From NCBI GenBank assembly GCA_000091205.1, contig AP006492.2: 64,000 nt of DNA; one strand, written 5' to 3'. The notes beneath the pieces are model-generated. The model saw only the letters and a program-made list of their open reading frames with translations, was not told the DNA's origin and did not search any database. The DNA is from Cyanidioschyzon merolae. Lineage: Eukaryota. The translations under genes were made by a program, and so were the position numbers. Shown here one piece after another: positions 28,011 through 61,961 of this stretch. Numbering within the stretch: position 1 is the first letter of the stretch; the number at the start of each line of letters is the position of its first letter.

Positions 28011-31000
28011 TGCATGCACCACAACGCTTTATATACCATTTTCCGCGGCGCTTTCGCATTCAGTGCCGGGCATCCCGTGAGGTGTGCAGGTGCCGCTGCC
28101 CAGCGGCGAACACCTTTGGCGCAAACAAGACCGAAGCGTTTTGTCGCCCGATGGATAGCGCGTTCGCCTCCTAAGCGAAAGGTTGCGGGTTCGAGTCGTC
28201 ACCGCCTGCACTGTTTCTTTGTCTAGCGCTGGAGCGATGGCGACTGTCCAGAGCCTCTTATCGTGTTTCGAATCGATGGTGTTCTACCCGTCAGTGTGTG
28301 GAACCTGCTGCTTCTTTATGGTTTATTGAAAATGTGTTTGCGGCGCGTTCATTTCGAAGAAATAAAAAACCAAACGGAACGGTATGGACGAACAAATCGA
28401 GGATCCTGGTGGACCGGTGTCGCCGGCTGCCGGACAAAAATACGAAACAAAATCCTCTTCTCGCCGACCACTGAGCGAAGCAGAGCAAGTGACGAAGAAG
28501 AAGTCGTAGCAGAGGGGATACGGGCGAGAAAAGGTTTTTGCCCGGCAGGACGATGACGAGACTTTAGTGGCACAGAGGGCTCAAGTTCCAGCAATCCTTG
28601 CATTGATGATTCTCACCAGCATCCATTCACGCGAGCAGTTCGTGAGCCGGCACTTCAATGCCGCCACCGATATCACGAGATATGCGGTGCTGAAGGAAAC
28701 ACACGAGGAGCTGACGCGATCCAACCTCTTTGGCTGGCCTTCGATGCTCGAAGCTTTCCTTGATGAACTGCAACCGAAAGCAGGCGGCCAGTGAACCAAG
28801 GCTTGCAAGCGTCTGTGAGCGGCCAGATATATGGAAGCTTACGAGCTGACGCTCTCGGGGGCCCGGCAGAACCGTTCTTTAGCCACGGTACGACCGCGCT
28901 GGTGCTCTAGGCGCTATCTTGAACGATCAGGACAGGTACTCGGCGCACAGGATAGAACATACGAAACGACCAGTATATCCTTGGATATGTATGGGTCAGG
29001 GAAGTTGGATGTTGGGCCCGGGCAACGACGGATGCTTCACCGCGCGCCCGTATCGAGCGCCAAGTCCGGGAACGCTGGACTCTGCGATCGTTTTGTCCAA
29101 TTATAGACAACTGCGCGTCGCTCACACATTCGACGTTTTCGAGACCTGAACATTTCCGTGCAACGGACGCCTGAATTCGATGAGACTTCGCAGGGCGGCG
29201 AATGCTGGAGATCCTGTCTCAGCACGCCTTTCTTGATTTGGTTTGTTTTTCTTACAGGTATTCATCGCAAGGTGCGTGTGTTTTGTATCGGGGAGAGGTA
29301 CCGCAAGAAGACTGCATGTTGTCGCTGGGGGCTCGCGAAAGAAAGCCTCAGTTGTACGAGTCGGTCATTCTACGGTAAGCGAATGGATGAACCTTCTTTC
29401 GCATGGTTTATATCCAGAACCTCGTGAACGCAGGAAAGAACTTTTCAAATCCTGTCTAGACAAGTGTCTGCTCTTCATTTCATTCCGTATGTTTTCCAAG
29501 AATTACGGAATGAAAGGCTGTAAGATGTAAAAATTACGTACCACTGGCACGAACAGCGATAAAGCGAAACGGATGGACATCGAACAGAGTGCGCCTCTAC
29601 AGGACATCGTCGCCTCTTGCATCATACGTCATCGATTTATGGACGGAAATGCAGACGCTTATGCAACAAGGGACAGGTGCTCGTCGCACTCGATGAAAAC
29701 GCACTCACAAGCAATCATAGATATGTTGATGGGCGCTCAACAGGCGGCACACCGCTGTCTGCAAAGTAGAGGCAAGCGTGCTGTCCTACGGCACCAGCCC
29801 CGGTGGCGACGCAGTGATTTCGTCACTTGCAGAGCGCCGAATGGGCAGAATCATTCGATAAAGCGCAATTCGTGGTCATATTCTTCCACATTCCAAAGTC
29901 CATCTCTTGAACAACGTTGCTTTACATGAACCAGATGCCGTCGACGAGTACGCAGCTGAGATTGGTGTTGAGCTGCTCCTCGTACCAGCCTGATCTCCCT
30001 GCTCGAATCCGATCGAAGGTAGCTTTGGCGTTGTTCAGCGCCATGTTGATGCTCACGGATCAGTCGAAGCGTGGTTCGCATCCTTGACACCATTCGAAGA
30101 CAAGTCGTTCTGTGGTTTCACCAGTCCTGAAGTGTTCCATCGCTTCTGTGCTTGAGGGCGAGACGGAGCGGACAGCCGTGCCTTCACCACAGGACGTACT
30201 CCCGATGGAGCAAGTGAGCAACAGGTATTTGGGGATATTTCGATACGCAGAGACAATTGGCGGGATTCAGCCGCAGTCTTCCTCCGAGAGCTCGCCGCAC
30301 CCGAGAAGAACCTGATTTGAAGTACCTGGTCCATATCCATGCTGCCCCATCAAGTAAAAGCAATAGAGACGAATGCACCGGACAATGAAGAGAAACACAT
30401 GACGGAAACGAGGATAAGGAGTGGCAAGCAACATACACTTTCGGAACGAAAACATTTGTCTGGAGCCATTACCAAGGCCTCGCTATTAAACAAACACCAA
30501 CGGAGAGCATCTTCCGAAACGAGAGATGCAGGACGCCACCAGGTATCGTGCGGCTTTGTGCTCGAGTGAGGCGCGCGTCGCGTCCGTCGCCTTGACATAT
30601 CTCCACAAGTAACTGCTCGTACAAATTCCCGACACCGGGATGCTACTATTTCACATTCCTCTGGAATCCTGCGATCAAACCTTCATGAGAAAGTGCAACG
30701 AGTGCACGCGCCATAGGATGCAAGACTGCCAGCTCGTGGAGTGAGGGCTTTGCAAATGCGCGCTCCCGAATACCACGACGTGTCGCTGTGCAACGTCGTC
30801 GATGGATACATCTCCAGCAGAGGTGTCAAAAGCATGAAACCACCCTCGAAAACCATTTGCGGGTGCGTATTCAGCGGTTCAGGAAGCGCACCCCGCAGGC
30901 GGTGCACGCTCACGACCACGGCGGTACCGGCTCCGAAAAGTGAGGCCAAATCGAATGGATTCTTCAGATCTGCATGGGGGCAAATGACGAGCCGCTGGTG

Positions 31001-32661
31001 ACCCAAGAGACCGAGGTGCTAGCGAGCGCGTCCGAAAGAGATATCCCAACGAGAGCGGGAGTCGCTCGAGAGCCTGTAAACGTTTCCTGTTGCTCTGGGC
31101 ATCGAATCGACAAAAACCGAATCCCGAAAATGCTTGGAGCGAGATGCCTGGCTCGATTCCAAGCTGTGCAACAATATGATCCTGGGTGGAGCCGTCCAGA
31201 GCAGGGCAGCGTTCTTCCCTGTATCCGAGCGGCCTTGGCTGCTCAAGCCCCTAATGCATGTGTTCCCTATTTGTCCGATCAAGGCGCATTACACCACATG
31301 AGTCTTTTGTGTACTATTTTGGTATCCTCACTGAGCTTTGACTAGTCCCTGCGACAGATCCGCGTGAAGCATTGGCAGAGGACGTTCAAGGTTTCTCGTT
31401 TAATGTGAGGAAACCGAAAGAATTCTACAGGGATAACGATTACCTACGGAGTATGCACCTGAATGCACATCATGAAACCTAGGCCTGAGTCCGTCAGCGA
31501 GACTCCCTTTTGACCGTTCAAGGTAGACGACGAGCAAGACTTTGAGGTGGTCGTGGACCGCGCGTTGAAGAACATCATACCCGTCGCCCTACATCGAATT
31601 ACGGAGGACCGTCGCGGTAACAACACGAATGGGAAGCATAGGAAACTGCTCCAATTTCCCGGAGCACCGTATTATCGAGATTCGGGTATGACAGACGCCA
31701 GGAGGTATACCACCAGATCGGAATGACTGCGCCAGAATCCCCGTGTCGACGCTCTGTGCACCGCCTCGAGCAGAGCGACATGCTTGATGGACCCCATTCA
31801 AAACGTTCGTCGCCGTCCACATGGGTCATGCCGGTCAGCTGCAGCAGGCGTACGCCAAACCGCCCTGGGATCGCCAACAGCCTCGGCAGTGCCGAAGCAG
31901 GAACCGTGCTCTTTCCAACATGTTCATGAGTTCGCAAAAGGATATGGCGGAACAGTCGCATTGTTCGGTCGTGGCGGTTGTGGCGATGGCAGTGATACCC
32001 CATGGCGCTTGAGGTTGCGTAGCGCGCACGCCCGCTCCGTCGACGAGCCCATACACTGAATGGAGGAATCGATTCTATATGATTTCCGTCCAGGCGTTCA
32101 AGGTTTCATATGTGCATCGCAAGCACGGGTGCCTCCTGAACCCGGTAGACAACAATCGCGTGAACCAGAGACTAATGGAAGAAATCGTGCTCGAGAAGCG
32201 ATTCGAATGTCAGTCGGCAAGGCAATCGAAAGTGAATAGCCTACCATTGCATGCTTCCACCGGCAAGCAGGCGTGCAAGCACGTACTGCAACGAGACTCG
32301 AACGCCGCGAACGACGTTCGGACATGTATCGCAGTGCCGCAGCACCCAGCGGCTTTGGGTCAAGCGGTCTTTCGCTGGAATCGCTTGGTATTTCAGGGAA
32401 ACAGGCTTCTGAAACGCCCTAGACTCGCGATTCACATAAACTCAGCGTCCACGAGCCAAGGCGTCGAATTCGCCCTTCATGATCGCCCTGCTATGGTACG
32501 GTGGTGCAGCAATGCCGCACGGCTTCAGCGCCCATTGTACATTCGCATTCGGAACAGGTTTCCGGGACAACTGACATCCAGTCATGGTCTTCCATGATAC
32601 CCGATGACAACGTATACCATGAACGATGCAGCGTATTCCAGAAGCACATGGAAGCGGACGT

Positions 32662-34868: not shown

Positions 34869-35100
34869 ATGGACAGACGGACGGACGGACGGACGGTAAA
34901 GATCGCCGACGACGGCGGCGGCGACGGCGGCGACGGCGATGCTGCTGCTGCTGCTGCTGCTGGCGACTCGAATGGATGAGATGCGATGCAGTGGCGTGCC
35001 GGGCAGTGCGTGCGCACGTGCGCATGTGTTTCTGTGTGTGCGTGCGTGTGCGTGTGCGTGCGTGCGTGCGTGTGTGCGTGCGTGCGTGCGTGCGTGCGAT
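34869..35100. repeat. Microsatellite cluster in the divergent promoter between the PUR-alpha-like and bL28m genes: (GGAC)n, (GGCGGCGAC)n, (GCT)8, about 70 bp of (GYGC)n alternating purine-pyrimidine
   Basis: Read directly: gacggacggacggacggacgg; ggcggcggcgacggcggcgacggcg; gctgctgctgctgctgctgctg; gtgcgtgcgtgtgcgtgtgcgtgcgtgcgtgcgtgtgtgcgtgcgtgcgtgcgtgcg. Confidence 0.9.
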
Positions 35101-35723: not shown

Positions 35724-36199
35724 GCGGTCTTTGTTAAGCGTTTCGCTTGGCGCGCGTTTTAGGCCAAAAGCGTCTTGTGCAAGCTGTGCATTGCAGGAAT
35801 GGCTCGCGTTTTTGGACCAGTTCGCAATACCTAGGCCTGAGGCACCCCAACAACCGCAGCATTCTTTTGAATCGTTTGGCGGAGAGGGCTGCATTCTGCG
35901 GATGCGCTGCTCGCCAGCGAAACACCAGAGGCGGTACCGGTCGCACGCATTACAGAATCAAATGGAACAATTCCTGCAACATAACTTGGACGTGCTCACT
36001 ATAGGTTTCGTCTCCTTCCAGTGCCAGCGACGACAGCTTTTCCGGGCTTTAACTCTCTCGGATCTCCGGCTTTAAGAACGCTGGTCTCTCCTGTAATTCC
36101 GGCTCGATTCTCAACAGTCGCAGCATGTTGCTGGCAGCGTTCAAGCCCGGATTTCGCAGTTTCCGGCCATTATCGACGCTAAAAATTGCGCAGGCAAAC

Positions 36200-36640
36200 G
36201 TTGCGTGCGACGCTTCGTTTGCCATGATCATGTTCGTTGTATAGAGCCCGGGTACATACATCGCAGCGATGACTCTTGGAATTTTGCACAAGTGTTCCCG
36301 GATTTTCGCGAAACACCACCACGGCCTCCTTCTCCTCCGAGAGTCGACTTGTCGGATGTGAACGCTGGCTTCTTCGCTCTGTACGGGCACTTGACGCGTA
36401 TAGAGGTCTATCCGCGATGGTCGCTTCGGTTGCCGGGCCCCGGTGCCGTATCCGCCCAAAAACGGGCTTGTTTTGGGCGGTCTTTCGGCATCTCATTTCG
36501 CCAGCTATATGTACAATCGCACGCTGCTCCATTCGAGACAGGATTCATGGAATGCGATGTCGCCGATGATGAAACAAGTGCTGTAAGGATACGCCAGGTT
36601 TGAAAAGGTGGTCGAGAAATTTGAATCTATCTTCGCTTTC
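36200..36640 (-). repeat. Copy B of the roughly 440-bp dispersed repeat family (inverted relative to copy A)
   Basis: The reverse complement aligns with copy A blocks 1-3, for example tgtttcatcatcggcgacatcgcattccatgaatcctgtctcgaatggagcagcgtgcg; ggatacggcaccgggg; ctatacaacgaacatgatcatggcaaacgaagcgt. Confidence 0.55.
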
Positions 36641-37415
36641 ATCATGCACGGCGCTGACGCGATGCCCTCTGGAACCGATTCCTGCGATGACGCACGCCCG
36701 AGTACGACATACTTTACCATGCAATCAGAAGAGACTCGGGTCCCTTGGAGTATAACCCATGAGAGCTATCAAGCTGCTGTTGCATGCCGGTTCATAGATA
36801 CTCGCAAGGAGACGAGGATCCATCTTTCGAACGGGTTCGATGAATGCTCTGGGCTAGTTCAGTTAACCTTGTGCAAGAGGATATTCAGAGATCGTCAAGA
36901 AACGACAACGAGTATTTTTCATTTTCGATTCAGCTGTGCGCTCGAGCTGCCTTGAAAAAGATACATCGAAACTCGAAGAATGCACGCGTTGATCACGCTA
37001 GACGTAAGGAACGAGGAACCGCGGGGTCTTGCCCATATGAACTGGATCATGCGATTGATTATGTTACCAAACCTTGTTCGAAAGCGTTGCAAATCATCTT
37101 GATTCCGTTCACGTAAACAATTCCAGAAGCAAAGCTTCATCGAAGCCACTCCGAAAACAAAATCCGGAATCCGGACACTATACATGAATCTTTAAGCCTC
37201 TATTGCTACTCTTTGAGTTTCAGCACTATACAACTGAAAAAGGTATGAAAAAATCTCATGGCATGAACAGAGCGAGCGGTTCAGTGCTCCGTTCGGATAC
37301 AACGCGACGGCCGCTTGTTGCGGTTTGTGTGTATGGGCGTGAACGTGCGCGGCACAGGAACGACGTCAGGGTTTCGACGGTTCTCCGGAATCGGGAATGT
37401 TTATATACTCGCTTT

Positions 37416-38273: not shown

Positions 38274-41254
38274 CTGCTCCGCCAAAGCGAGTTTTGTGGC
38301 GTTGGGGCCGTGCCCCGAGCTTTGTCGTTGCTGGCAGCGTGAAGGAACAAGCCACAGACGCATCGATGGTATTGCTCCAGTGTTTTTGGGCAATTTCTAC
38401 GGGAAAACGCTTCCATGGGCAGCTCAGGTCGGCTTGCTGAATGCTCCGGACAATATTTACGTCGATGAGGTCTCTGGCTGGGGTATCATCATTAGAGCCG
38501 ACGGCGGATCCGGATGAATGTGTTTGCCGTCGCTGTTGGCAGTGAGCGTGCCCGACGAAAACAGCGTCAATTCACGCATTCGCATTTCATAGGCCAGCAA
38601 GTGAGCATTTAGCCTCCGCTGCAAGCCTGCGACGCATGCGCCTAGAATCCACAGCCCGCGTTTTCCGACATGCACTTGAATGATGGAGGCTTTCGCAGCT
38701 TCCGCGCACGCTGCCAAGTCGGCAGACCGCTGAGCAGCCGCAACCGAACATAGGTGTTTGTGACCTAGGCTACGGCCTCGTAGGCAACTTTTCGCACTGC
38801 ACGCGCCATTCGCGTGCATATCATGCATGATACAAGCACAACTTGCAGCTGTGGAGAAGTCGGATGTCGCTCCACGGAATGCGATAGTTGCGCAGCGCCG
38901 ACACCGACGCTGATGCCAAGGCCCTACGGAACGCATGCAATCGTTTCGAGCTTGGAGCACGCGCGCAGCGTCATCGCTTGTGCAGTCTCGCGAGCGTCCA
39001 CGCTGACCGTTCATCGCGGGTATCATTCGTACTTTCGAACCATGCAATGCCCGTACTGTTCATCATTAGTTGCCGGGGGGCGGGGGCGGGGGGCAAATCG
39101 TTGCCGGTGTATGTGTACGGCGCTCCGGCGTTGGTGTGTCGCTGAGCGGCACCATACCAGTGCCTTGTTTTGGTTCAGCATCTCATCTGCTGTGTTCAGG
39201 CGGCGGACTTGTTTTCATTGGAATTCAGCTGCATTTTACCACAGTGCGCCTATAGGTTACTGAACTATTGCCCCGAGAGTTCGCTCCATACAAATCCGCT
39301 GGGAGCTCTGGAAGCATGAAACTTTTCTTTCTGTTGATCGGGCGTTCAGGTCTCGGTGTGGAAAGTGCTGGTGCGCATCGTAGCTCGTGGTATGACACCG
39401 TCGTATGCTCCTCGCCGGCGATTTCCACGCCATACAACACTCTATCTGCGTAACGTACATCATCTCGGGCAACCGTCATTATTTCATGCGCTTCTTCTGT
39501 TCCACTGTCAGCGTGTATCTGCACCGGTGCAGCGTGTGTTCCTCCGTGAACGCATCGATGGGAAACGTCCAAAATCGATTCCTGCTCTCGTTGGGCGCAC
39601 CCGTCGACGAAGCAGAAATATAGATTATGCGCGCTACAGGGCGTCTAGCGCCATAGGCTAGTCTCGAACGTCGCATTGTATGAGCACTGCCCTTGTTTAG
39701 CTCATGGAACAAGTTGGCGAATGCACGCTGCTTGTCTTCACACAAGCGAAATCGTACGCGATCGCAGCAGGGTTTTATGTACAACAGCCGAAGATGCTCC
39801 GCGGGAGCTATTTGGACGATCGTACTCTTTCTGAATACAGCGTACAAAACAACCGTGTCTGCTCGATACGGAGCTCAGAGCGTCGTCTTGGGTCCTGACG
39901 CTGTCATTCAATTCATTGGTATGCAGCATGACGCCAATTAGGCCCGAAACCTCATGATGCCGAGCCCAGAACAATTCGAGCAGCTGTATCTGCTTTCCGT
40001 TCAGGTCTTTTACTTCGTCTTTTCGACTCGGAACGAAGGCGACGGCCACGATGGACTTCAACCCGAGATCTACGCCCATCACGAAATCTTACGGTTCACC
40101 TACCTTGGACGGTTGAAAATGAGTCTCGCGGCTCTTTTCATGCCGTTAGTCCGCAAAGTGCAGGTAGACGGGTGATCTGTTGCTCCTCGTCGCCCGCATA
40201 AACCTATTTCCATCGCCTGCCCGTCAACGAGATTCGTTGAACGAGCCCTGCCGATGCTCTCTGCGAAATGGGTTGAATGCTTCACACTAGCTGCCAGAAA
40301 CTATAGCCTTAGCTCATTGACAACGCCATACAGTACAGTATACAAGTGTCTACGGTCATTGTATGCGCCTTGAGGTCACAGATCGGGACCGCATCCCACC
40401 TACGATAGAGAAGTAGAGGGCGCTCGCATTCCGAAAACAAGCCTCATTTGCTCCGAAGCGCCCCCTTCAGAAACATATTGTATCGCGATATCCAAGGAAG
40501 GCACGCAACGCGCGTCAACCATCGTTTGGGTACAGCGTCCACCGCTTCGAGGTCGAAAGTAACCCAACGACAGTTCACAAACTGAAGCGACTCTCGCTCT
40601 CATTACAGCATCTGTGCCGAACTCGATATCGCCTGGAGCTCTTCCGCCACCAGCTCGTTATTTGCCTCCATCGACACGACCGACAATCTCTCGCATTTGT
40701 CCCTGCTTTTCCGGGCTGGCACGCTCAGCGTGCATCAACGCTGGTACGCAGATCACCCAGCGACTCGACTGCGCTTCCAAGCGGCTTGCCGTAACACTTG
40801 ATATGATTGTATAAAATGGAATAAAAATACCATAAATGAGAAAGAATCGTCGCTGACGACGACGCTCGCGTCCATGGCCCAGACTCGCGATTTTTCGAAA
40901 TCTGGTCGCTGGCGTGGGGGTTTAGATCTGCGGCATCGGCGAGCATCCCGTCCGCGTCACTGAACCTGCGCAGCAAACGCCTGCGCCGGCCCACGATCGT
41001 GAACGTTGTTGTTTGTTTCCCGTAGCGAGCAGCGACATTGGAAGGCGGAGTACCTGCTGCGCCGTACAATCAAAAAGCAGCGGTTGTTTCTTCGAGAAGA
41101 TACTTGTCTGGCAAGTAGAAGCGCTTTGGCCTCACCCGACCGCACAACAGTTCACGCAGGTTGCGTAGGTGACAGAGCCTCACTAGGATTCCGCTGCGAA
41201 CGCGGCAGCAGCCACGGGTGAAACTCAAACAGCGTTCGACGCACCACAAGGCAG

Positions 41255-44222: not shown

Positions 44223-45767
44223 TCACCAGCTCGGCGGTGGAGCCGACGGACGTGGCACGCCCTCTGACCCGCCGTTTTCCGACCCTCCAAGCGAGGTCAC
44301 TGTTGACTTGCCAGCGCCCGCCCAGCTCGTGTCGGGTATTGTGGCGAGCGTATCCGCCCCGCCACCGAACCTGGAGTAAGGAGCGCTCGCAGCTTGGTTC
44401 TCGGGAGTAGCACTCGCATCCAATGGATAAATCTGGTACATGACTGGTTGAACGGTTCGTCCCGGAGCCATCTTTGCCCAGACAAGCAGGTCTGCATCCA
44501 GAACGAGCAAAAAGTAGAGGATAATGTAGATGGCGGCGAGGACCAGTCCGACGACAAAAACGATAAACGCGGAAGAGATATCCGAGTCGCGCTGACTGCC
44601 ACAGGATAAGGCACCAATACGGTGCACTGCCCGGAGCATCGTGGTGCAGTTCGTCAAGTCCTCGACCTGGGTCACCAGCTGGTCGGTCACCTGGGTGTAA
44701 TCCGAGTCGCTCAGGCCGGTTGCGCTCTCAATGATATATCGGCAGTCCGAAATGATCGACTTCAGTTCAGAAATCGCTTGGCTGTACGACTTGCCTAGGG
44801 TATTCAACACAGGGCACTGTAGGCCGACCTCGATAAAGGCGTTTCCTGAGGGAGGCGGTGGCGCTGGCTGACCCTGTTGAAAAGACTTGACCTGCGATTC
44901 CATATACTGGAAGAGTTGATTTTGGGAAACACAGGCATCGCTCAGTGCGAGGGCTGCGGCAACCGCGAGACCCACCACAACCCATGCGATGCCCATGACC
45001 AGTCCGGCAAAGATGAGTGCAAGAATGCGAGAAAAGACCGCACAGCAGTTGCGGACGTGTCCCTGACAGAGCACCAAGGCCAGGTAGGTTACGCCGACTT
45101 GAACGGCTAGCAAGATGACAATCGCCAGAAAGATGTACTGCACGACATAGATGCCTTCATTGCTGGCTCTGTAGTCGGCCCCGGCCACCAACTGGGCATC
45201 TGACTCGAGAGTTTGCGCTTTTTGGTTCAGACTGGAGAGCGCTGACTTGCACTCGAGGCCGTTCGTACTACCATGCGCCGCAACGTACTCGGAGACTGCT
45301 TGACTAAAGTTACTGACAGTCTGGGCGATGAATGTTGCACCATTGTCGAGCTCGCCTCCCGCAGATATCAGTGCTTTAAAGGTACCCGATACCGAGCGGT
45401 CGATACCGCGCGCCGCCTGGAACATGATCGCGAGCGAACCATACGTGATAACGATAAGAGCGAGACCCACGAGGCCCAAGGCCACAAAGTGCCTCCGCAA
45501 ACCCGGTCTGAGACTGCGCTTGTACCACCACTGCTTGCAGCAACATGAGCGGATCGTCAGAACCAGAAGAGCGGCTAAGAAGAGCACTACACCAACGATA
45601 GCGTACGGAAGTGCGTTCAGCGCTACCGCCACGGCATAGGACTTGCTGAGGGCAAACGTGTTCCGCGAGTCTACTCGCAGGTACTCACTGTGGAAGAAGT
45701 TTACGAGCGCAGATAGTTGCGCAGCTGACGTCCCTAGCCAGACACTTTCAACGAGAGAGAGACTCAT
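44223..45767 (-). CDS. Multi-pass transmembrane protein (about 5 TM helices with two large loops; prominin/tweety-like topology), function unknown
   Basis: Several 20-25-residue hydrophobic helices (ALNALPYAIVGVVLFLAALLVLTI; ALGLVGLALIVITYGSLAIMF; IYVVQYIFLAIVILLAVQVGV; ILALIFAGLVMGIAWVVVGLAVAAALAL; AFIVFVVGLVLAAIYIILYFLLV) separated by Cys-containing loops. The ORF is open up to 46571, but that upstream part is low-complexity and contains a tandem duplication, so I prefer the ATG at 45767 (MSLSLVES...). Confidence 0.5.
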   Translation of the reverse strand: MSLSLVESVWLGTSAAQLSALVNFFHSEYLRVDSRNTFALSKSYAVAVALNALPYAIVGVVLFLAALLVLTIRSCCCKQWWYKRSLRPGLRRHFVALGLVGLALIVITYGSLAIMFQAARGIDRSVSGTFKALISAGGELDNGATFIAQTVSNFSQAVSEYVAAHGSTNGLECKSALSSLNQKAQTLESDAQLVAGADYRASNEGIYVVQYIFLAIVILLAVQVGVTYLALVLCQGHVRNCCAVFSRILALIFAGLVMGIAWVVVGLAVAAALALSDACVSQNQLFQYMESQVKSFQQGQPAPPPPSGNAFIEVGLQCPVLNTLGKSYSQAISELKSIISDCRYIIESATGLSDSDYTQVTDQLVTQVEDLTNCTTMLRAVHRIGALSCGSQRDSDISSAFIVFVVGLVLAAIYIILYFLLVLDADLLVWAKMAPGRTVQPVMYQIYPLDASATPENQAASAPYSRFGGGADTLATIPDTSWAGAGKSTVTSLGGSENGGSEGVPRPSAPPPSW

Positions 45768-46030
45768 CGGGAGCGGTGCACCAGGGAATACGCCAGCCAC
45801 GTAGCTAGCAAGGTCGCTGTCGGAACCAGGAGGACTGCCCCCTGAAACGTTGGCTGGTGCGCCGCCTGCGTCCCTGTGCGAACACACGTGTCCGGCGGCT
45901 CGGGGTGCTGGCGTGCAGCATTCACCTGTCGGATTGATGGGCGAATGCGGTGTCGCGCTATCTCGGCAGAGGCGGCGATGCTGCTGTCTCGCGGTACAGA
46001 CACACCCACAGACGCTCTGCAGGTATGTGT

Positions 46031-46140
46031 ACCGATTGTTCATATTCTGTACAGTAGAGTTCATGTTCTGATCGAGCAGCAATGGTGACCGATTGTTCGT
46101 ATTATGTACATTAGAGTTCATGTTCTGATCGAGCAGCAGC
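46031..46140. repeat. 57-bp direct tandem duplication (x2)
   Basis: accgattgttcatattctgtacagtagagttcatgttctgatcgagcagc..(unit 1) and accgattgttcgtattatgtacattagagttcatgttctgatcgagcagc (unit 2), followed at 46205-46226 by (CTGG)5. Confidence 0.85.
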
Positions 46141-46667
46141 GTCCCTGTGCTGGGAATCCGCGGTGCTGCACGACCGACTCCGATGCGGGATTGATCGGCG
46201 ACGCCGCCTGGCTGGCTGGCTGGCTGGCTGGCGCAGAGCGTCCGTTGGCTGCTGTGTCGACACGCTGGCAAGTCGACGACGACGGCGACGACGACAGCAG
46301 TCTGACGCCTGATGCCCAGATGCGTAGCAGGCGGTGTCCTCGGAGTGGGTGGCGTGTCCTGCAGGCGCGTGCGCCACAACGTTGTGCTGTACAGCGTACG
46401 GCAGCTGGACAGCCTGCGTGCCTCCAGCGCCTCCGCTGTGTCCCTGTGCCTGAACGAAGCGTTGGTGATACGCGAGCTGCTCTTGTCTGTATCCAGAAAT
46501 ACGGCGCTCGGTAAAGTCTCTCGCTGAAACCGTTTTACTGGCGTTCGCAGAACCGAGCTGGGGTATCGCAAACCAGGTTGTACACTCGGTTAAAGTTCAG
46601 GTTCCTGGGCTCAGTTCTGCGGCTGTTCTACGCTGCTCAGACGAATCGAGCGCTATTTTTGAGTAAA

Positions 46668-52134: not shown

Positions 52135-52559
52135 TTTTACATCGAAGCTGCGCCGCACCGCACCGGCATTCACGGTGCTTGTCCAAGGTACCAAGCAGTG
52201 GAGATACCGAAGTTGGTACACGTGCTCCTGAATCCAACTCGCCGGAAACCTACCAGAGTCTATGGCGTTTGCTTGCTTTCATAGAGCTTGCCCTTAGAGC
52301 AACTCGTTCTCTAAATCTATTTCAGCATGAAATGAAACGAGTCGTCTTGCTCGTGCGTACGTAGAATCGTTTGGACTGCTTTTCATTCGTATTGGGACAT
52401 GTTTAAGCAGGACGCTTGCTGAGACTGCTTCGTATCCTCTCTGGTATCTCCGGGGCTGGAGTACGCCGATTTCTCCTGTCCATCCAGCTTCTTTGTCGGC
52501 AGTCGAACGACGATGAGAGCAGCATCAAAGTTCTGTTTGCACAGCTTTCGGCGATTGCT

Positions 52560-53060
52560 GCGATGCATACTTCGCTTGCGATTTTGATCTTCTTTTGATA
52601 CGGTCACCGTGCGCTCTTCGCAGATGTAATATTAGTCTGTGGTTCGGTGTTCGAACATGTCAAGGAATCCACTGCCTCCGAGGGCCTCTAGGTAGTGCGT
52701 AAGCGTTTGCATCAGCGCCCAGTGCGCATTCTTGACCGGCACACAAGTCGCCTTTTGATGCCCTCTCTCCGTTGCGGCACCCGATGCCCGGCCCAGGGAT
52801 CACCGGCTTCTGCTGGGCGACTCCCTCGGCGAGTACTCCTGTCGTAGGATGCGGAAGCGCACACTGTTTCTTTCGATAAGAGATTTGGTGAACGCGATGT
52901 TGCCCATGATAAAACATGAATCGGAAGGGCAATCCAGGCTAGAGAATACGTCGAGGAATTTCCATGCGTCTACGCGAGCCTCGTGCAAAGTGACGAGGTA
53001 CTCTTCGCTGGAAGCGATCGCCCGGATAACTGGAGTCCGAAACCAAGACTCCTTTCCATG
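52560..53060 (-). repeat. Copy C of the roughly 440-bp dispersed repeat family
   Basis: The reverse complement aligns with copy A, for example tgttttatcatgggcaacatcgcgttcaccaaatctcttatcgaaagaaacagtgtgcg; gagggagtcgcccagcagaagccggtgatcc..cgggcatcgggtgccgcaacggagagagggcatc; ctgcgaagagcgcacggtgaccgtatcaaaagaagatca. Confidence 0.55.
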
Positions 53061-54259
53061 TAAACAGAAGAGACGGCAGCTTCTCGCAGCATATCCCGTG
53101 AGAGATGTGACGCTGCTGTGGAATCGCGTATCGGCGGTAGTCCCTAACATCACGATATGCCATTTAAGCAGAATCAATTGTTTTCGATACAACGTCAGTG
53201 AGCTTTCGGGGTGTGCTAGTGAAAAGTCGCCAAGCGACGACGTTGAAGATTCTTCGTCGTCGTTCATTTAGCGTCACGCGTGGCAGCGATCACGAGTTGC
53301 ACCGAAACAGCGAGATTAAAAACACGAAGCATGCGTGATTTGAGCCTGCTACACATGAGGAAAAGAAGAAGCGTGGAGGCTTTTGCGTCTGGACGGCATC
53401 ATGGTATCGGTTTGTTGATGAACGTTTCGTCGAGAGCGTCGCGGGTCATCGTCACTCCAGTAGCGTCATGAATTCCAGCGGGGACGCTTCGACGGAGCCG
53501 ACTCGAGGCGACGCGCCAGAATCCAGAAAACAACGTACGCATTCGTCAACGCCTACTCCTGTACTTTTTTGATCAAATCTGTATATCCATCACAACATTC
53601 TGTATGTAACCGAGCGGGAGCAGCCGTGCGAGCAGTTCGCCACTCCATTTGAATCCGAAACAGGTGTCGTGTGCTTCTATGTACGTTTGGAACGCGCATT
53701 TGTGAGGTTCTTGTGCAGAGCGCATGCGTTTCTGAGGTTTGCTCCATTCGCTCCCCAGGTGTCGGGGAGGTTCCATGCGCACCGCAGATTTGCATGCTGT
53801 CAAACGTTGGATGGAATGAAGAGTAACGTCGGCATGATTTCCGTAGGTCGTGTTTCCATACGCACTGGTCGTTCACGGCAACTGCAACTGCTAGCTTGAA
53901 AGCCTGGAGTGTAACCGAGCACACGCCTGCCCCGGTTTCGGAGCACTGCACTGCATTGCATTGCATTGCCGATTGGGGATGCGGCGCACAGCGACCCGAG
54001 CGCTTCCTCTGGTGCTCACAAGTGCGTTAGGCGTCGCTCATAGGACGGCTGTGCGTTGCGGGCCACATCGAGCGTTTCTTTTCAAAAGGTATACAGGAAA
54101 ATCGTGCCGTTTTAACGTGTCGTTGAAGCGTTAGGTTGTCAACCGCTGTATCTGCACTTTGGATTCCCTTTCATCGACTCGCGGGCAACACTGGTGGCAA
54201 CGCGCACAAGCGCCACGCTTCGGGGTCTGGATCGGCTTTCCTGTAGCTTGGACACTTTT

Positions 54260-54598
54260 ATGGCTTCGGGTTACTCTGTTCACGGCGGCGAAAGTCGCTG
54301 CTACAGCTTCTGGTTAGCATTCAAACGTTGCATGCTCGAGTCCTCGGATAAATCAGTGTGCTCGTCGTACCGTCAAGATTACGAGGAGTGTTTACATCAC
54401 CGCAAGGCTATCAAGCGGTTTAACGAGGTCGTTCGGGAGTACCAGCGTCGACAAGCTAACGGCGAAGAGCTTCCCCTGCCCGGGCAAATGCCGACTGCGC
54501 CGGTGGATGCCCATGAAACGGGCTCTGCAGGGAGTGCACCCAAAGGCTCCGATGGAAGCACTGCTCCTGAGATTCCGCCTGAGGTCATGACGCCCTAG
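54260..54598 (+). CDS. NADH dehydrogenase (ubiquinone) Fe-S protein 5-like twin-Cx9C protein (complex I 15-kDa subunit)
   Basis: Two Cx9C motifs in the characteristic context: RCYSFWLAFKRC and CSSYRQDYEECLHHRKAIKRF (compare plant NDUFS5 RCYDFWMDFSEC / C..REDYLECLHH). ATG at 54260; the ORF extends upstream to 54194. The C-terminus is low-complexity. Confidence 0.65.
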   Translation: MASGYSVHGGESRCYSFWLAFKRCMLESSDKSVCSSYRQDYEECLHHRKAIKRFNEVVREYQRRQANGEELPLPGQMPTAPVDAHETGSAGSAPKGSDGSTAPEIPPEVMTP

Positions 54599-56079
54599 CG
54601 CTGGCGGGCTAGTATGCACTCACATAGATGACAAAGGGCATCACGAGCAGGGCTGGGCGGCAAAGCGCCGGCGCTGCTGATACCATCTGCCGCTGTCGAG
54701 GGCGCAACAAGTGCGTTCTGGGCCTCGCGAGCGTGTTCTGCCGCCAGCGCTAAAGTTTTCTCAACACCTAGACCCTTGCGAACCAGTTCCGCGACTCGTT
54801 CTTTATCTCGCCTCTGCCAAGCGCGATGAAGCTCCAGTGCATCTACGTTCGCGGGACCCTCAGCGGCGAGCAACACAGGGGCGGTAATCGTACCCTGCAT
54901 CAGATCTTTGTTGGCTGGTTTCCCCATATTGCTACTTGAAATACTGTAATCCATCGCGTCGTCTACGAGCTGAAACGCCAATCCCAAATGATCTCCGTAG
55001 TGCGCAGCAGCGTGAACGATCTGAGGCTGGTTTCGACTCACGGGATTCAGGAGGGTCACCGCGCGACAGGAATTCGCAATGAGTGAAGCCGTTTTGTACC
55101 ATGTCTTGCGCATATATGCGTGGAATGTGGGCCAGTCGTCGGGGGTGTTAGGCGATCGTCCATTGCGGGCATGCTCGGGGCCCGGGTCGTTCAGTTGCAG
55201 GACTTCCCCCTGCACGAGATGCTCAATGACACGCGAGAGGAGCTCCACGACATCACAGTCCCGGAGCTGCGCGAGACAGACAGATGCTCGTGCAAGTAGA
55301 AAGTCTCCTGCCAAAACAGCCAATTGATTCCCGAACAATGCATTCACGGTGCTCGCGGATCGTCGCATATTCGACTCGTCAATCACGTCATCGTGCAACA
55401 GCGACGCCGTGTGGATCATCTCGGTAATCATCGCTAGTTGAAGCTGCGCGTGGCTTACAGTGCCCAGCGACTGGAGACATGTCGCTTGGGCCATGAGCAG
55501 TACAACAGCAGGCCGCAAACGTTTCCCGGGAAGTTCGAAAAAGTACTGCGCCGCGCGTTGCAGCACCGGGTGGTCTACGGCGACCGCCTGAAGCACCTCC
55601 GCGGCCAACCGCTGTAGGTGCTGCTCGACTAAACGAAACGGATCCATAGATGATGCAACTCCGGACACGCGGGTTTCGAGTAAAGAAGCGAGCGATGCAA
55701 GCGACCACGGTAGACCGTTGGCTTGCGTCGGCACCCGAGCTGCGTTCGCCCACCTACGCTGCCGGCTGTCGACGTTCTGAGACGCGGATCCAGAAATCGC
55801 CTCAGCTACGCGGTTCAGTGCTCGATGTTTTCGATTTTCTTCATCTTTTAGAAACGCAAGGCCACCGGCTGCGCTATCGGGGAGCGCACTTCCAGGCAAC
55901 TCTGTACCCGCAGGTGTCAGTGTCGACAAAAACGCCTGGTGCGTTTCAGCGTGCGTCGAACGCGTAGTGCATCCAGCTGGATGCCAAGCAGATACCGGTA
56001 AGCCACAAACCCTCAAGAGTCTACTTCTGTACAACGAGCGGTGGTGGTGCCCGAAGAAACGGCTCAGGCCGCACCACAT
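54595..56079 (-). CDS. Trans-polyprenyl diphosphate synthase (COQ1/solanesyl-decaprenyl diphosphate synthase type) with a long N-terminal extension
   Basis: Both Asp-rich motifs are present (first DDxxD motif: LLHDDVIDESNMRR; second: FQLVDDAMDY), plus GNQLAVLAGDFLLARA, GKPANKDLMQGTITAP and a KRLRP substrate-binding motif. The reported ORF opens at a GTG at 56124; the first ATG is at 56079 (MWCGLSRFF..., presequence-like). Confidence 0.85.
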   Translation of the reverse strand: MWCGLSRFFGHHHRSLYRSRLLRVCGLPVSAWHPAGCTTRSTHAETHQAFLSTLTPAGTELPGSALPDSAAGGLAFLKDEENRKHRALNRVAEAISGSASQNVDSRQRRWANAARVPTQANGLPWSLASLASLLETRVSGVASSMDPFRLVEQHLQRLAAEVLQAVAVDHPVLQRAAQYFFELPGKRLRPAVVLLMAQATCLQSLGTVSHAQLQLAMITEMIHTASLLHDDVIDESNMRRSASTVNALFGNQLAVLAGDFLLARASVCLAQLRDCDVVELLSRVIEHLVQGEVLQLNDPGPEHARNGRSPNTPDDWPTFHAYMRKTWYKTASLIANSCRAVTLLNPVSRNQPQIVHAAAHYGDHLGLAFQLVDDAMDYSISSSNMGKPANKDLMQGTITAPVLLAAEGPANVDALELHRAWQRRDKERVAELVRKGLGVEKTLALAAEHAREAQNALVAPSTAADGISSAGALPPSPARDALCHLCECILARQR

Positions 56080-56854
56080 ACAGTGGAGTTCTCCGCGGCT
56101 ACACACCGGTGCGGTGAAAAGCACGTCGTCGTTGCGACTGCGGGACAGGATCCCCGAGTCGTCGTTAACGATCCTCTGGGCAGGGCGGCAGCCGGCCGGC
56201 CGGCACTTGCGCTTCCGCCCTGTAGTGCGGGTGCGGGTGCGCGCTGCCTTCAGCGGCTACGCGGGATGACTCAGTGGATTTCAGCTTCGTTCGGCTCAAG
56301 AGGCGTAGGTATTTCGTTGGATTCTCTGATGGTGTTCCATAAATTTACGTGTTGCTGAGCGCCATGGAGATTGGGTTGCTATGCTCCCGTGTATAGGGCG
56401 CGTACGGGCAGAGGTGGCATGCGCCAGGCTTTCGCCGTGCTGATCGATGCGCGGGTACCCGTTTTCTTGATAGACAGAGGGCTTTCCAGTGCTGCATCAT
56501 GCATACGGTATGAGGTGGTGATCATTTTCATACCGTGTCATGCTCGATTACGTTGCTCCTTGCGATAGGCTTTCCGAACTACTCGCGCTGGTATCGTGAT
56601 GCCCGCCGCACGGTGCCATCGCATCACCTCGTGCGATGCTCGCGCGCTGCTTGCCAGGGACCTGATCAACTGGCGCAAGCTGCGTTCCCTGCGAGGCTGG
56701 CTGGTGCAACGCACGATGCTTCTTTTCTAACGGATGGTATGGAATGCGGGGACCGGTTCCTGAGAGGGAAACCAAAAACTGCGGCATGCATTCGAGTGCA
56801 TTGGGATGCGGCGCTCTGTCTAGGGTCTTCGCTGCACTTGTGTCAGATGGTAAT

Positions 56855-57350
56855 GGGACACTGAACTAGCCGCCGAGTTCATGCTTTTCGGTGACAATCC
56901 GAGATTGTTTAGGTGTACAGGTATGGCGTTCGACTGATGGAAAGAGGGGCTTTGGTATTTATATGTTGTTTCGGTGATGGGACACTGAACTAGCCGCCGT
57001 GTTCATGCTTTTCGGTGACAATCCGAGATTGTTTAGGTGTACAGGTATGGCGGTCGACTGATGGAAAGAGGGGCTTTGGTATTTATATGTTGTTTCGGTG
57101 ATGGGACACTGAACTAGCCGCCGTGTTCATGCTTTTCGGTGACAATCCGAGATTGTTTAGGTGTACAGGTATGGCGGTCGACTGATGGAAAGAGGGGCTT
57201 TGGTATTTATATGTTGTTTCGGTGATGGGACACTGAACTAGCCGCCGTGTTCATGCTTTTCGGTGACAATCCGAGATTGTTTAGGTGTACAGGTATGGCG
57301 GTCGACTGATGGAAAGAGGGGCTTTGGGATTTATATGTTGTTTCGGGATT
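56855..57350. repeat. 124-bp tandem repeat, 4 copies (minisatellite), intergenic
   Basis: Unit gggacactgaactagccgccgtgttcatgcttttcggtgacaatccgagattgtttaggtgtacaggtatggcggtcgactgatggaaagaggggctttggtatttatatgttgtttcggtgat begins at 56855, 56979, 57103 and 57227. The first copy has 2 substitutions (gag/gtg, gcgttc/gcggtc) and the last copy diverges at its end. There is no ORF of 60 aa or more. Confidence 0.95.
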
Positions 57351-57879
57351 CTCGGTCGCGGATTTGAGACGTTTTTTTGACGCCAGGCCGCTGAATTTTG
57401 CTGCATTACCAGAATCGAACTGATTCGCGTCGATCTTTAATAACCACTCGTATACTATACGATTGCGTTATCCAATGCAAACGTACATGCTTCAAGTCTT
57501 CTTCTTTTGTTATGTTTCGCATGCTCGATGTGCGCGTGCTTCGAATTTTTGAAATTTCTAATTCAATTTGTGGGCGCAGCGTCTCGCACCTCTGGATTGA
57601 AGAGGTACAAAACTCGACTTTGCACCTTGAGGACTTGTTGACAAACTCACACTGAAACTTCACTGAACTTGAAAAGCCAAATAATCGATTCCGTTCGAGA
57701 GAGAGAAATCATTCGCTCTTCTTCTTGCTATCGACGAAACTGCATCCCACGGCAGCATGATCTACCAGACGGGATATGCTCCCAGAGGCTCCAGTCTCTT
57801 CTGTTTTCACAAAAGAGATCTTGGACTCGGACCGTATTCACCGCAGCAATCGCTTCTATTACAGTGTGCGTCGCTGCTT

Positions 57880-58330
57880 CGTACGAAGGGAGCGTCGTTG
57901 GATCGAAATTACTCGTCTGGATCTCTCGTATGGATTTTGCTTCCGATACTTGCATCATGACGGATAGCATCGCGTTCCTCGAATACCGTATCGAATGGGA
58001 CACCGTACTTTCCGAGTGTATCGTTCAGAGGAAGCGCGTCATTGCAAGGTGCATCACCTGGCACGGAAACGGAGGAGGGCATCGCGGGGAATTTCCTGCA
58101 CTCGTCAAGTGTGCATATCGAGCAATGAAGCAAATGTTCGCTCCTCGCAGCGTGGCGCAGAGCGGAGGTGATGTTCAGGCCATCTGGGTGCGCACCTATT
58201 CAGTGTCCAATGTAATCGCTGCGAAGTGCCCACCGAAGCTGTCTGTCAACAGGATGAAGATAGCAAACGAAACCAGGATCACAACGACCGTCTGTGCATG
58301 ACAAGCGTCGACAACAGCCAGAACATGTGA
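57880..58330 (+). repeat. Copy D of the roughly 440-bp dispersed repeat family
   Basis: acttgcatcatgacggatagcatcgcgttcctcgaataccgtatcgaatgggacaccgtactt; ggaaacggaggagggcatcg; tatcgagcaatgaagcaaatg; gctgcgaagtgcccaccgaag align with blocks of copies A-C. Confidence 0.55.
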
Positions 58331-58814
58331 AATCGGGACTTGGACGACGCGATTAACATCCTTGGACTGCTGACAACGAAGATGAAGGATTAGGAGAGAC
58401 CGGCGCATTCAAAGCAGGACAGGGGCGAGAGCCGAAAGGATGCAGTTACAGAGGAATCCCGCAGCTGCTGATGTTCACGACGCTGGAAAGCGCCCGAACG
58501 GCTGCCGAAGACGCCTCCGTGAGCAACATGCACCCGTTCCATCCAGCTTAAAATAGATCAATATTGTATGAAAATATCTTTATCTTTCTTTTACTGGATA
58601 AAGCTGTACCTCGTGATCCATCATGCGTGCGCGGCGCACGTCGAAAGTGGCGCGACGCGCTGACGGCTGGTGCAGTTTTTGGCGGGTAGTACCCAGTGTC
58701 GCCGCGGTGTCCCGCGAGCGCCCTGGAACTGCTGCACGACAGCAGTCAAGCGCTGGTGCTTCGCCTGAGGCGCTGTTCAAGAAGTCGCATGATCGTCGCG
58801 CTGCGATTTGATTC

Positions 58815-61800
58815 ATGGCACTTGCGAGCAACACGCTTCCAACGCTTCCTATTGAGGCAGCGTTGCTGACGGTTCTGGACGTTGGTATACACGGGAAGCG
58901 CGCTGCGGTACCAGGAAAACTACTAGGTTTGCGCACGAGCGCAGACATTGAGTCGGTGGTGAGGCGCGGTGAGCTGCCTTTTCGTGAGAGATTTCTTCTG
59001 GTGACGGCTGTCAGCCGCGACGGGCGTTCTATTCGAATCAGCGACGGCAAGAATAGCATCCTGGCGACGTGTTCGGAGCGGCTCTCGCAGGAAGCGGACG
59101 TACACGGAACGGTGCCGTTTCCGGTGTCTTTGCGCGACCGATGTGTATTTATGAACGGGTGTGTTCGGCTCAGTGCGGCACGTGACCTGGAATCAACGAT
59201 TACGGAGCCCGACGCGTGGGATCTCGCAGTGCGCGAGCACGCTGCCCGCCTGTACGGGCAGTGGTTTCGAAAGACGATGCTTGCGGGTGGCGGGACCCGA
59301 CCCTGGACTGCTTTTCTGCAACAGGTCACCATTGAGAGTTTCATTCGAGTCGAAGTCGAGCTGGTCAACACACAGACGACAGCATGGGCGTTTCCGAACC
59401 GAATGATGACCGGAGATGTGGTGGATGTGAACCAAAGCTTGCGAGTCAAAAGGAAACTGACGCAGTGCCTGATCCATCTGTTGGCACCAATTGAATACCG
59501 CGATAATGTGCCGGCGTATGCAGGGAGCGCATCGGCGAAGACAGGTGTTCGCGGTGCAGATGCGCTTCACGAGTTGCCTTGCTCCGATGCGGTACCATCC
59601 AATGAAACCTCCGGTGGGTATCCTCGGAATGCGTGTCCAGTCGAGGACGCGGGCTCAACAACCGGAGCCGTCCCACAGGCGCAGCACGCGCCAATACCGC
59701 GGCCTCTGGCTCTGCGTATGCGACTTGCAGCCAAACAGCGACCTGTCGAAGGATCAGACGATCCGATGCCACAAAGTGAGGCCGCTGATTCCTGTGCACC
59801 GATCAACTCCAGCAAATGCGATGGTGATGTTAGAGCGCAAGCGCCTCCGCTGAGGAAGAACGCGAAAATTGGTCAGTCTCATGAGCCGTTGCCGGACGCT
59901 ATGGCCACAGAAAGCAGCGGAGGAACTGATCAAGGCTCAGGTGCTAGCGCAAAGCATGCGGTTCATATCGAGAATCAGATCGCGGCCATGGCTTTGCCCA
60001 AAGTCGACCTGGCCCCAACTGGTAGCACGTGGGCGAATGTCGGCGACGCAGAGAAATCGAACACCGAAGCGCCCGAAAGCACCGTGGGTGGCACTTCCGA
60101 GAACGCCTTACTTCGGGGGAAAGAGCTCCGCGTTCTCTATAACGCACTGGAAGCGATGCGCCTGCCACCGAGTTCCTTGTCTGCATTAGAAGATGAGCAT
60201 GCAAGGGGTCCAGTAACGGAAATCGGCGCGCTCGGGTTGGCGCCTGCTCCGATTTCTGGCCCCGTGTCTGAGCAATGTGCATCTACCGAGGATGATCAAA
60301 TAGCCCCTGCGGTTGGCAGCCAGCAAAGCCAGCACACTGCTCTCACACCCGGGACGCCAACGGCATGCCCAACGAACGACGCTGTTGAGAACGCACAGCG
60401 AAATTTACATAGCGATCTGGTATGTGTCACGGAGTCTGTTGAAAGCGATGCCGTGCGCCGAGGAGCGCCTCCAGGAGCAAACACCATCCCTAGTGATGGT
60501 GATGACAAAAACGATGATGCGGCTCAAGCATGTCAGGATCATTCGGACGGTCGCAAACCATCGAGTGATGATCGAATACGCTCTCAGAAACGTATGCGCA
60601 TCTCACATTTGAGCTGCGACCGCAGAAGCCCTGAAAAACCCCAGGAGAGCGAGAGCGTCTGCACAAGTACGTCCCGAGAAACATTTCAGCAAGACAATAA
60701 CATTACGAACAGCGTTAGCACTTTCGAAGCAAACCTCATGAATATGAGCCCGGTACCGCGAAAGCGTTGCAAGGCTATTGTGCCAAGCAGCGCCACACGG
60801 ACACCTTCTGATGGACCCGCTCACGCCAGTAACGAACGACAAATCTCTCCCCAAGATCGCGCAGACGAGGCAACTGTGCGCGACAGCAATGGGACTGCGG
60901 CTGTAGCAATAGCCCCTGCATTCCAAGACACCGCAAACGGAACCTTGCCGCATAGGCAGTCGCAAAGGTCGCGCCAAACCCGCAACGCCGCTGTAACAGA
61001 CGGGGAAAATACGTCAGGTTCTCTGAATGCAACAGCACTGCCGCCGAAAAATCGCCGAGGTAAGAAGCCACGGCGGCGCGCTCCTCAGCCTATTGAAGAG
61101 ACGGGTCATTCCTCACCCGGGCAGGGCACGCGCAACAGCACGTTCGTCGGCCCCAGCAAAGCGTGCGACTCGTCCCAGCAAGCTCTGCAGCGCACACAAC
61201 TGGAGTGTCAGTTAGAAACGGCTGGCAAACACTCGAACCAGCACGAGTCAGTTCCTTTTGACTGCGCTCGCGACCAGACCAGTGACTCATCGACGACGAC
61301 AATGACGACGCAGCCACCACCAACATCACCACCATCGTTTTCTAGTACGGTACCGCCAGACGCTCAGCGCATTGCCGTAGAGTCTCCGCAGCTCGCGGAT
61401 TCAGCCGCATCGCCTGCTGGGCAAGAGCACCGCGGCCGCAAAACTCGCTCGGAACGGCGCCCCTTACCGGTGCATGCGCAGGATAGAGGTGATGGCGCAT
61501 GCAGGAATGCCACGTGTCCCGCTGGAGACAGCACCATCGACGCGCACGCATCTCCATTGATGACTGGCGAGCGTGATCGCACGCACCCGGTACGTGGAAG
61601 TGCGCGCGCTGCAGACGCGACTGCATGCGCTGATGGTCCGAAAAACGCTATGCAGGCTAGTGGCGAATTGCATGAGCGCCGCGATGCCCCCAGTGTGCCT
61701 TCAGATGATCTCCAGAGCCTCGTTGCGAATGGAACACCGCGAATGGCGCTGCTAACAGCTGGTACCGTCCAATCAAAGCGGTCTGAGGAGGAACGGTCCA

Positions 61801-61961
61801 TGTCAGCAGCAGTTACGCCCGTTCGCTCAGGGCACGCGAGTCCCGACACAACTTGTGCCCAGAGTGCTCTGCCGCCGTGGGCTCGCTACCTGCGCAACCT
61901 CGGTAGATGGCGGTTTTTCAAGGGACAAAAATGGCGAAATGATCCCCGAGATCCCTCCTAG
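58815..61961 (+). CDS. Large hypothetical protein (1048 aa): a structured N-terminal region of about 230 aa followed by a long Ser/Ala/Pro/Thr-rich disordered region
   Basis: ATG-initiated ORF uninterrupted over 3.1 kb. The N-terminus ...GKLLGLRTSADIESVVRRGELPFRERFLLVTAVSRDGRSIRISDGKNSILATCSERL... could be an OB-fold-like domain; this is speculative. No family assigned. Confidence 0.4.
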   Translation: MALASNTLPTLPIEAALLTVLDVGIHGKRAAVPGKLLGLRTSADIESVVRRGELPFRERFLLVTAVSRDGRSIRISDGKNSILATCSERLSQEADVHGTVPFPVSLRDRCVFMNGCVRLSAARDLESTITEPDAWDLAVREHAARLYGQWFRKTMLAGGGTRPWTAFLQQVTIESFIRVEVELVNTQTTAWAFPNRMMTGDVVDVNQSLRVKRKLTQCLIHLLAPIEYRDNVPAYAGSASAKTGVRGADALHELPCSDAVPSNETSGGYPRNACPVEDAGSTTGAVPQAQHAPIPRPLALRMRLAAKQRPVEGSDDPMPQSEAADSCAPINSSKCDGDVRAQAPPLRKNAKIGQSHEPLPDAMATESSGGTDQGSGASAKHAVHIENQIAAMALPKVDLAPTGSTWANVGDAEKSNTEAPESTVGGTSENALLRGKELRVLYNALEAMRLPPSSLSALEDEHARGPVTEIGALGLAPAPISGPVSEQCASTEDDQIAPAVGSQQSQHTALTPGTPTACPTNDAVENAQRNLHSDLVCVTESVESDAVRRGAPPGANTIPSDGDDKNDDAAQACQDHSDGRKPSSDDRIRSQKRMRISHLSCDRRSPEKPQESESVCTSTSRETFQQDNNITNSVSTFEANLMNMSPVPRKRCKAIVPSSATRTPSDGPAHASNERQISPQDRADEATVRDSNGTAAVAIAPAFQDTANGTLPHRQSQRSRQTRNAAVTDGENTSGSLNATALPPKNRRGKKPRRRAPQPIEETGHSSPGQGTRNSTFVGPSKACDSSQQALQRTQLECQLETAGKHSNQHESVPFDCARDQTSDSSTTTMTTQPPPTSPPSFSSTVPPDAQRIAVESPQLADSAASPAGQEHRGRKTRSERRPLPVHAQDRGDGACRNATCPAGDSTIDAHASPLMTGERDRTHPVRGSARAADATACADGPKNAMQASGELHERRDAPSVPSDDLQSLVANGTPRMALLTAGTVQSKRSEEERSMSAAVTPVRSGHASPDTTCAQSALPPWARYLRNLGRWRFFKGQKWRNDPRDPS

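Follow-up and report, generated by a model that had tools for sequence, protein, structure and literature searches.

A probable transposon-derived minisatellite of 124-bp units in a decayed Fanzor1-like element copy of Cyanidioschyzon merolae

Four nearly identical 124-bp units stand head to tail in a 64-kb stretch of Cyanidioschyzon merolae DNA (the whole stretch analyzed, hereafter the window), and they occupy the 5′ end of one copy of a diverged dispersed element whose three other copies in the window carry the same segment only once. We consider it probable that the array arose by tandem duplication of ~124 bp within this old and inactive copy, copy D, of a Fanzor1-type relic, and that it constitutes a young minisatellite specific to this locus.

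Tandem Repeats Finder, run on the 64-kb window, reported a period of 124 bp with 4.0 copies, 98% matches, 0% indels and a score of 968, and together with an alignment of the units placed the array on the plus strand at 56849–57346, consisting of four 124-bp units followed by 2 bp. The four head-to-tail 124-bp units described in a first-pass annotation are thus borne out without indels, while the interval given there for the array, 56855–57350, was ~5 bp off. The units, all on the plus strand and termed u1 (56849–56972), u2 (56973–57096), u3 (57097–57220), and u4 (57221–57344), differ from one another at 0–4 positions (97–100% identity). Both u2 and u3 equal the consensus, u1 departs from it by A for G at unit position 4, A for T at position 28, and T for G at position 81, and u4 departs from it by G for T at position 108. 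A tandem repeat search found no other large tandem array in the window; at a smaller scale, a 57-bp tandem duplication of 1.9 copies (94% match, 46031–46138) and a (CTGG)6 run (46208–46232) both lie within a minus-strand ORF at 44223–46571. No frame of the array stays open beyond 55 codons, in keeping with its earlier description as free of ORFs. The array was also said to be AT-rich compared with its surroundings, which agrees with GC contents of 47.6% in the array and 55.8% in the window as a whole. The remainder of element D (48.9%) and copies A–C (49–52%), however, have nearly the same composition as the array, so that the AT-richness is a property of the whole element and not of the array alone.

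The dispersed element was revealed by comparing the window with itself, and its four copies were delimited by blastn, MAFFT, nhmmer, and a profile of copies A, B, and C. Copy A (3942–5304, plus strand), copy B (35944–37303, minus strand), and copy C (52297–53659, minus strand) each contain a single copy of the unit-homologous segment, and copy D (56832–58611, plus strand) carries the array near its 5′ end. The element measures ~1.36 kb, copy D measures ~1.41 kb once the array is collapsed to one unit, and a fifth, partial copy lies just past the window end at positions 12468–12650 of the environmental contig L005. Pairwise blastn of the four intergenic regions gave collinear alignments of 1.1–1.27 kb at 58–62% identity, and the collinear 1.2-kb alignment of copy B with the array-collapsed copy D begins at 56852, within a few bases of the array start. 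In a MAFFT alignment, the 124-bp unit matched the single-copy segments of A, B, and C column by column. To avoid circularity, a profile was built from A, B, and C only, with D left out; it matched u1 with an E-value of 1.5e-7, reaching 17 bp further left to 56832, u2 with 1.8e-4, u3 with 1.9e-4, and u4 together with the downstream sequence with 4e-17, and each of the four units fell on profile positions 23–142. Judged by this homology, the 124-bp unit is the 5′-proximal ~120 bp of copy D (element positions ~23–142), amplified in D only. The array had previously been placed ~530 bp upstream of copy D, which must be revised, as it forms the 5′ end of that copy; what had been called copy D (at ~57880) is the best-conserved core of the array's own element.

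All four copies share their left and right boundaries and contain few indels for such divergence. A mobile truncated derivative is one possibility to account for the common 5′ boundary, and neither terminal inverted repeats, LTR-like termini, nor target-site duplications were evident for the element. The element copies differ from one another by ~40% and the units by at most 3%, and this contrast between copies of 58–62% identity and units of 97–100% identity indicates that the expansion is far younger than the element, in line with the recent expansion first proposed from the near-identity of the units.

None of the copies A–D retains an intact ORF, all being interrupted by stops and frameshifts. 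The candidate of a protein-coding dispersed element was rejected, given the weak codon periodicity of conservation across the copies, the presence at the element center of open frames of ~170 codons on both strands whose homologous frames are broken, and two large protein searches that returned only the same loci in environmental contigs. Read across the stops, however, the plus strand of the element encodes near its right end a zinc-ribbon-like CxxC...C followed by a RuvC-III-like motif (NRDLDDAINIL in D and NPGLNAASNML in B) that resembles TnpB and Fanzor proteins. We searched the six-frame translation with a Fanzor1 HMM built on the C-terminal parts of nine Fanzor1 sequences from the literature, leaving out that of C. 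merolae, and recovered in copy D, on the plus strand at 58202–58411, a Fanzor1/TnpB-like C-terminal remnant with in-frame stops that contains the zinc ribbon and the RuvC-III motif (11.6 bits, i-E 7e-5); the best score among 60 Markov-shuffled windows was 4.0 bits. A weak Fanzor C-terminal match also occurs in copy B at 36064–36231, the place homologous to that in D. The consensus of the four copies, with its frames stitched by hand, scored 25.5 bits (E 3e-9) over positions 21–136 of the 137 of the Fanzor1 HMM, spanning the RuvC-II region, the 'DEyrTS..C..C' ribbon, and the RuvC-III motif.

Alignment by hhalign with CMe-1, the published Fanzor1 protein of C. merolae, placed the same motif in register, although weakly (P 0.003, probability 11%), profile searches of the stitched element peptides against Pfam, NCBIfam, and PDB gave no matches, as expected for a decayed and frame-shifted relic, and a convincing RuvC-I motif was not found in the A–D copies. 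The weak and decayed C-terminal match suggests that the A–D element is a decayed relic of a Fanzor1 (TnpB-like) transposon. In the first-pass annotation it was argued that the array's presence here would be incidental if the unit turned out to be a fragment of a transposable element, and the unit, present once in each of A, B, and C, does appear to be a piece of a Fanzor-type relic; by that argument, its presence at this locus is incidental.

Previous work described 253 interspersed repeats in C. merolae that contain a truncated ORF weakly related to WSV486 of white spot syndrome virus (WSSV) and were reported to be transcribed (Nozaki 2007, PMC1955436), and the WSSV and C. merolae elements were later classed as Fanzor1 carriers, including CMe-1A (Bao and Jurka 2013, PMC3627910). 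Using the CMe-1 protein and the CMe-1A consensus from the supplements of PMC3627910, we located decayed CMe-1A/CMe-1 copies in the window at 28259–29097 and 30824–32372 on the plus strand and at 11141–11539 and 39341–40503 on the minus strand, with tblastn E-values for CMe-1 of 4e-24 to 2e-11 and a recognizable N-terminus (MDEQIEDPGGPVSPAAG), and with blastn matches to CMe-1A at 28259–29097 and 11376–11518. The CMe-1A copy at 28259–28815 has an internal deletion, with a reversed 5′ fragment alongside. Membership of A–D in CMe-1A was rejected, as blastn with the 3169-bp CMe-1A consensus and tblastn with CMe-1 both missed A–D. Like the WSV486-like repeats and CMe-1A, the A–D copies are dispersed and intergenic, contain a decayed ORF with a TnpB/Fanzor C-terminal signature, and lack visible terminal inverted repeats or target-site duplications; unlike CMe-1A, they are ~1.36 kb rather than ~3 kb long, and no nucleotide similarity between the two was detected. 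On these comparisons, A–D would represent a second Fanzor1-like relic family beside CMe-1A, either diverged or truncated. The CMe-1A relics and the A–D family make up a noticeable share of the intergenic DNA of the window, and the former by themselves point to C. merolae, or a very close relative, as the probable source of the DNA.

The window contains long uninterrupted ORFs on both strands at ~56% GC and a nuclear CcmH gene, and no tRNAs were found in it. To the left of the array lies a COQ1-like polyprenyl diphosphate synthase gene on the minus strand (54595–56124), identified from the ORF list and from homologs with PF00348. Its ORF starts at 56124, 725 bp from the array, matching the earlier estimate of ~730 bp, and its probable ATG, the first internal Met, is at 56079, so that the array lies 725–770 bp upstream and transcription points away from it. 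The best named relatives of the encoded protein are red-algal and stramenopile with at most 47% identity, and a 100% identical protein is present in JGI environmental data. Two JGI samples yielded one contig each, L001 and L002, that start at exactly the same position, 56107, which is 28 nt before the probable ATG; this start marks either the 5′ end of a transcript or an assembly break common to both, close to a (GGCC)n-like tract (~56160–56185 in L009). Together with L019, these contigs gave nothing usable on whether the array is transcribed. At its other end, the COQ1-like gene converges with a small NDUFS5-like gene (54194–54598, plus strand), the two ORFs overlapping by 4 bp at their stop codons, and the same convergent arrangement is present in the relatives L003 and L004. 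To the right, ~200 bp beyond the end of element D, a conserved gene of 1048 aa (58815–61961, plus strand, from the ORF list) is syntenic in L003, with which its 5′ end shares 70% nucleotide identity; no Pfam domain was found in this ORF. Given the short distance between this gene and element D, its promoter is predicted to lie, probably, inside the transposon relic.

Two relatives with the same gene order, L003 (COQ1 identity 64%) and L004 (52%), have intergenic regions of ~0.5–0.7 kb at the two places that measure 2.06 and 2.69 kb in the window, the region at the array being ~590 bp against 2.69 kb. At copy C, the size gap of ~1351 bp approximates the element length of 1363 bp. A profile search for the element in L003 and L004 gave no match, and these short intergenic regions together with the missing match indicate that the elements are lineage-specific insertions. 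Elsewhere in the window, several environmental contigs stop matching at 35171, near a (GTGC)n microsatellite at 35034–35098. Past this point, contig L013 (7363–9759) continues with a 63-bp duplication and then with unrelated sequence that contains a prolyl-tRNA synthetase gene, which is either a structural difference or a chimeric contig.

The homology with A, B, and C makes the history of the array legible from its variant sites. In the MAFFT alignment, copies A, B, and C have A in the column of unit position 4 and (mostly) G in that of position 108, identifying these as the ancestral states. The ancestral A4 is retained in u1 and the ancestral G108 in u4, and at each of the three internal junctions the derived T108 and G4 stand on either side, 21 bp apart. 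The duplication junction reads TTTCGG joined to T(A/G)ATGG, with the GG common to both parental flanks. The derived T108/G4 pair is also present in environmental contigs, indicating that the array is older than the ~0.5% divergence between strains, and A28, T81, and an A at unit position 58 (GATTGATTAGG in L006, L009, and L011) are later segregating changes.

From these states we infer the following order of events. The element would have landed in the interval that separates the COQ1-like gene from the 1048-aa gene, and much later a primary tandem duplication, joined at the 2-nt microhomology GG, would have produced two units. Point mutations would then have altered both flanks of the new junction, from G108 to T in the left unit and from A4 to G in the right unit, after which slippage during replication, or unequal exchange between sister chromatids, may have multiplied the 124-bp register containing the junction to give four units. 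On the aligned sequences, such an order of duplication, mutation, and amplification is the most parsimonious history.

A genome-wide satellite, or a false expansion or collapse during assembly, would offer a different origin for the array, and both possibilities had been raised earlier. We scanned a metagenome collection with one 21-mer taken from a stretch in which the units do not vary and obtained five contigs, four of which (L005, L006, L007, and L009) are this locus in the same species, being 99.3–99.5% identical to the window over up to 12 kb. The fifth, L008, is an unrelated AT-rich sequence that has the 21-mer alone in common, a chance match, and the scan gave no other locus, at odds with the earlier suggestion of a satellite. 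A viral origin of the unit was rejected as well, as a search of viral contigs for the unit gave no match. Confinement of the array to one locus follows from the window self-comparison and the metagenome 21-mer scan, plus a few contigs of this genome. Satellite DNA consists of long arrays, or of many arrays genome-wide, and a minisatellite of head-to-tail copies at one locus with a constant period of roughly 10 to more than 100 bp. As the array has four units only, the segment is single-copy in A, B, and C, and no further locus was found, satellite DNA was rejected.

The assembly itself gives some reason for caution, as short-read contigs L007, L009, L010, L011, and L012 either end within the array or begin directly past it, and L005 and L006 have only two units. 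In both of the latter, however, the first unit carries A4 and the last G108, and they match the shortest de Bruijn path through u1 and u4, so that they are best read as an assembler collapse rather than a two-copy allele. At least three units are indicated for L009, where T108 occurs in the second unit, and the edge variants A4 of the first unit and G108 of the last recur in independent contigs. That independent metagenome contigs of the same species carry the array speaks against its being an artifact of this assembly, and a satellite or an assembly artifact is, in our estimate, a very improbable source of the four units. Contigs L010 and L012, from different samples, start at 57329, directly behind position 108 of the final unit, a G/T site; this suggests that the site is polymorphic in the populations they represent and marks the end of an assembly bubble. 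L009, on the minus strand, contains a 229-bp tandem duplication corresponding to window positions 56639–56867, immediately left of the array but including the first 19 nt of u1. It crosses the left edge of the element, with a junction of cactgaact joined to gctcgcgcgctg, and, as a second duplication polymorphism at this place, hints at a duplication-prone spot, unless the contig is chimeric.

The position of the array raises the question of whether its units, being at the 5′ end of the element, serve as monomers of a promoter or enhancer and boost transcription of either the relic or the divergently oriented COQ1-like gene. The array does stand at the element 5′ end relative to the Fanzor-like reading frame and in the space between divergent genes, where one would expect regulatory DNA, and related C. 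merolae repeats were reported to be transcribed (PMC1955436), so that the 5′ end could have promoter activity. In addition, each unit contains two short hairpin-forming palindromes. These palindromes and the ATG-containing segments, which had been singled out from the sequence of the unit, are not kept in A, B, or C in the MAFFT alignment, and the three other copies have only a single unit. The unit region is conserved no better than the element remainder, with a mean column identity among the copies of 0.50–0.56 compared to 0.57–0.66 elsewhere in the element, and relatives that lack the element manage with only ~0.5 kb upstream of COQ1. Weighing these observations, we regard a role as promoter monomers as unlikely. 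A more specific proposal, that the number of units tunes transcription of the relic or of the COQ1-like gene, a ubiquinone side-chain synthase, which would make the array a putative convergent analog of L1 monomers in this extremophile alga, appears more doubtful still. As to the earlier suggestions of a transcription-factor binding array or a replication-associated element, none of the present results speaks for either.

Tandem small-RNA genes, such as C/D-box snoRNAs, would be another functional reading of the units, with GUGAUGG as the C box, CUGA as the D box, and UUUC/GAAA as the terminal stem. On the plus strand of u2–u4, GUGAUGG indeed occurs near the start and CUGA ~85 nt further on, with a possible 4-bp terminal stem. 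Nevertheless, neither box occurs where A, B, and C align with the unit; u1, which retains the ancestral state, has GUAAUGG and hence a broken C box; and CUGA also occurs 5 nt past the supposed C box, illustrating how easily such motifs are found by chance. Rfam, searched at the gathering score and at E ≤ 10, returned nothing relevant for the unit or the array, and the sequence belongs to a transposon relic, all of which makes snoRNA genes highly unlikely here. More generally, two units folded no better than shuffled sequences on either strand (z = +0.94 and +0.16), and a structured RNA from the array was rejected on this basis. We infer that the array lacks a function, and most likely it is neutral and driven by slippage or unequal exchange in a dead transposon copy.

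Read as a young minisatellite within copy D, a repeat that stands out in a genome famous for having few of them becomes a clean negative, namely an ordinary transposon-derived minisatellite, whose stepwise history is legible from four variant sites. Should the array prove polymorphic, it would offer a convenient means of telling strains apart in environmental populations of C. merolae, and the A–D family, with four to five copies in ~65 kb, is relevant to cataloguing Fanzor/TnpB remnants in red algae.

Among known systems, the 5′ promoter monomers of mouse LINE-1 and the enhancer repeats of retroviral LTRs resemble the array in having tandem units of ~100–200 bp at the element 5′ end, upstream of the reading frame. 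The monomers of mouse L1 are family-wide and of proven promoter activity, whereas the amplification described here affects one of the four copies. The closer likeness is to transposon-derived minisatellites, in which, as in the array, a fragment of a transposable element is repeated head to tail at one insertion and is much younger than the element, and in which the edge units hold the ancestral states while the interior units are homogenized. Taking these comparisons together, the array is probably an ordinary transposon-derived minisatellite rather than a satellite or a special regulatory array, distinguished from other such minisatellites by its Fanzor1-type host relic, its very TE-poor red-algal genome, and its size of only four units.
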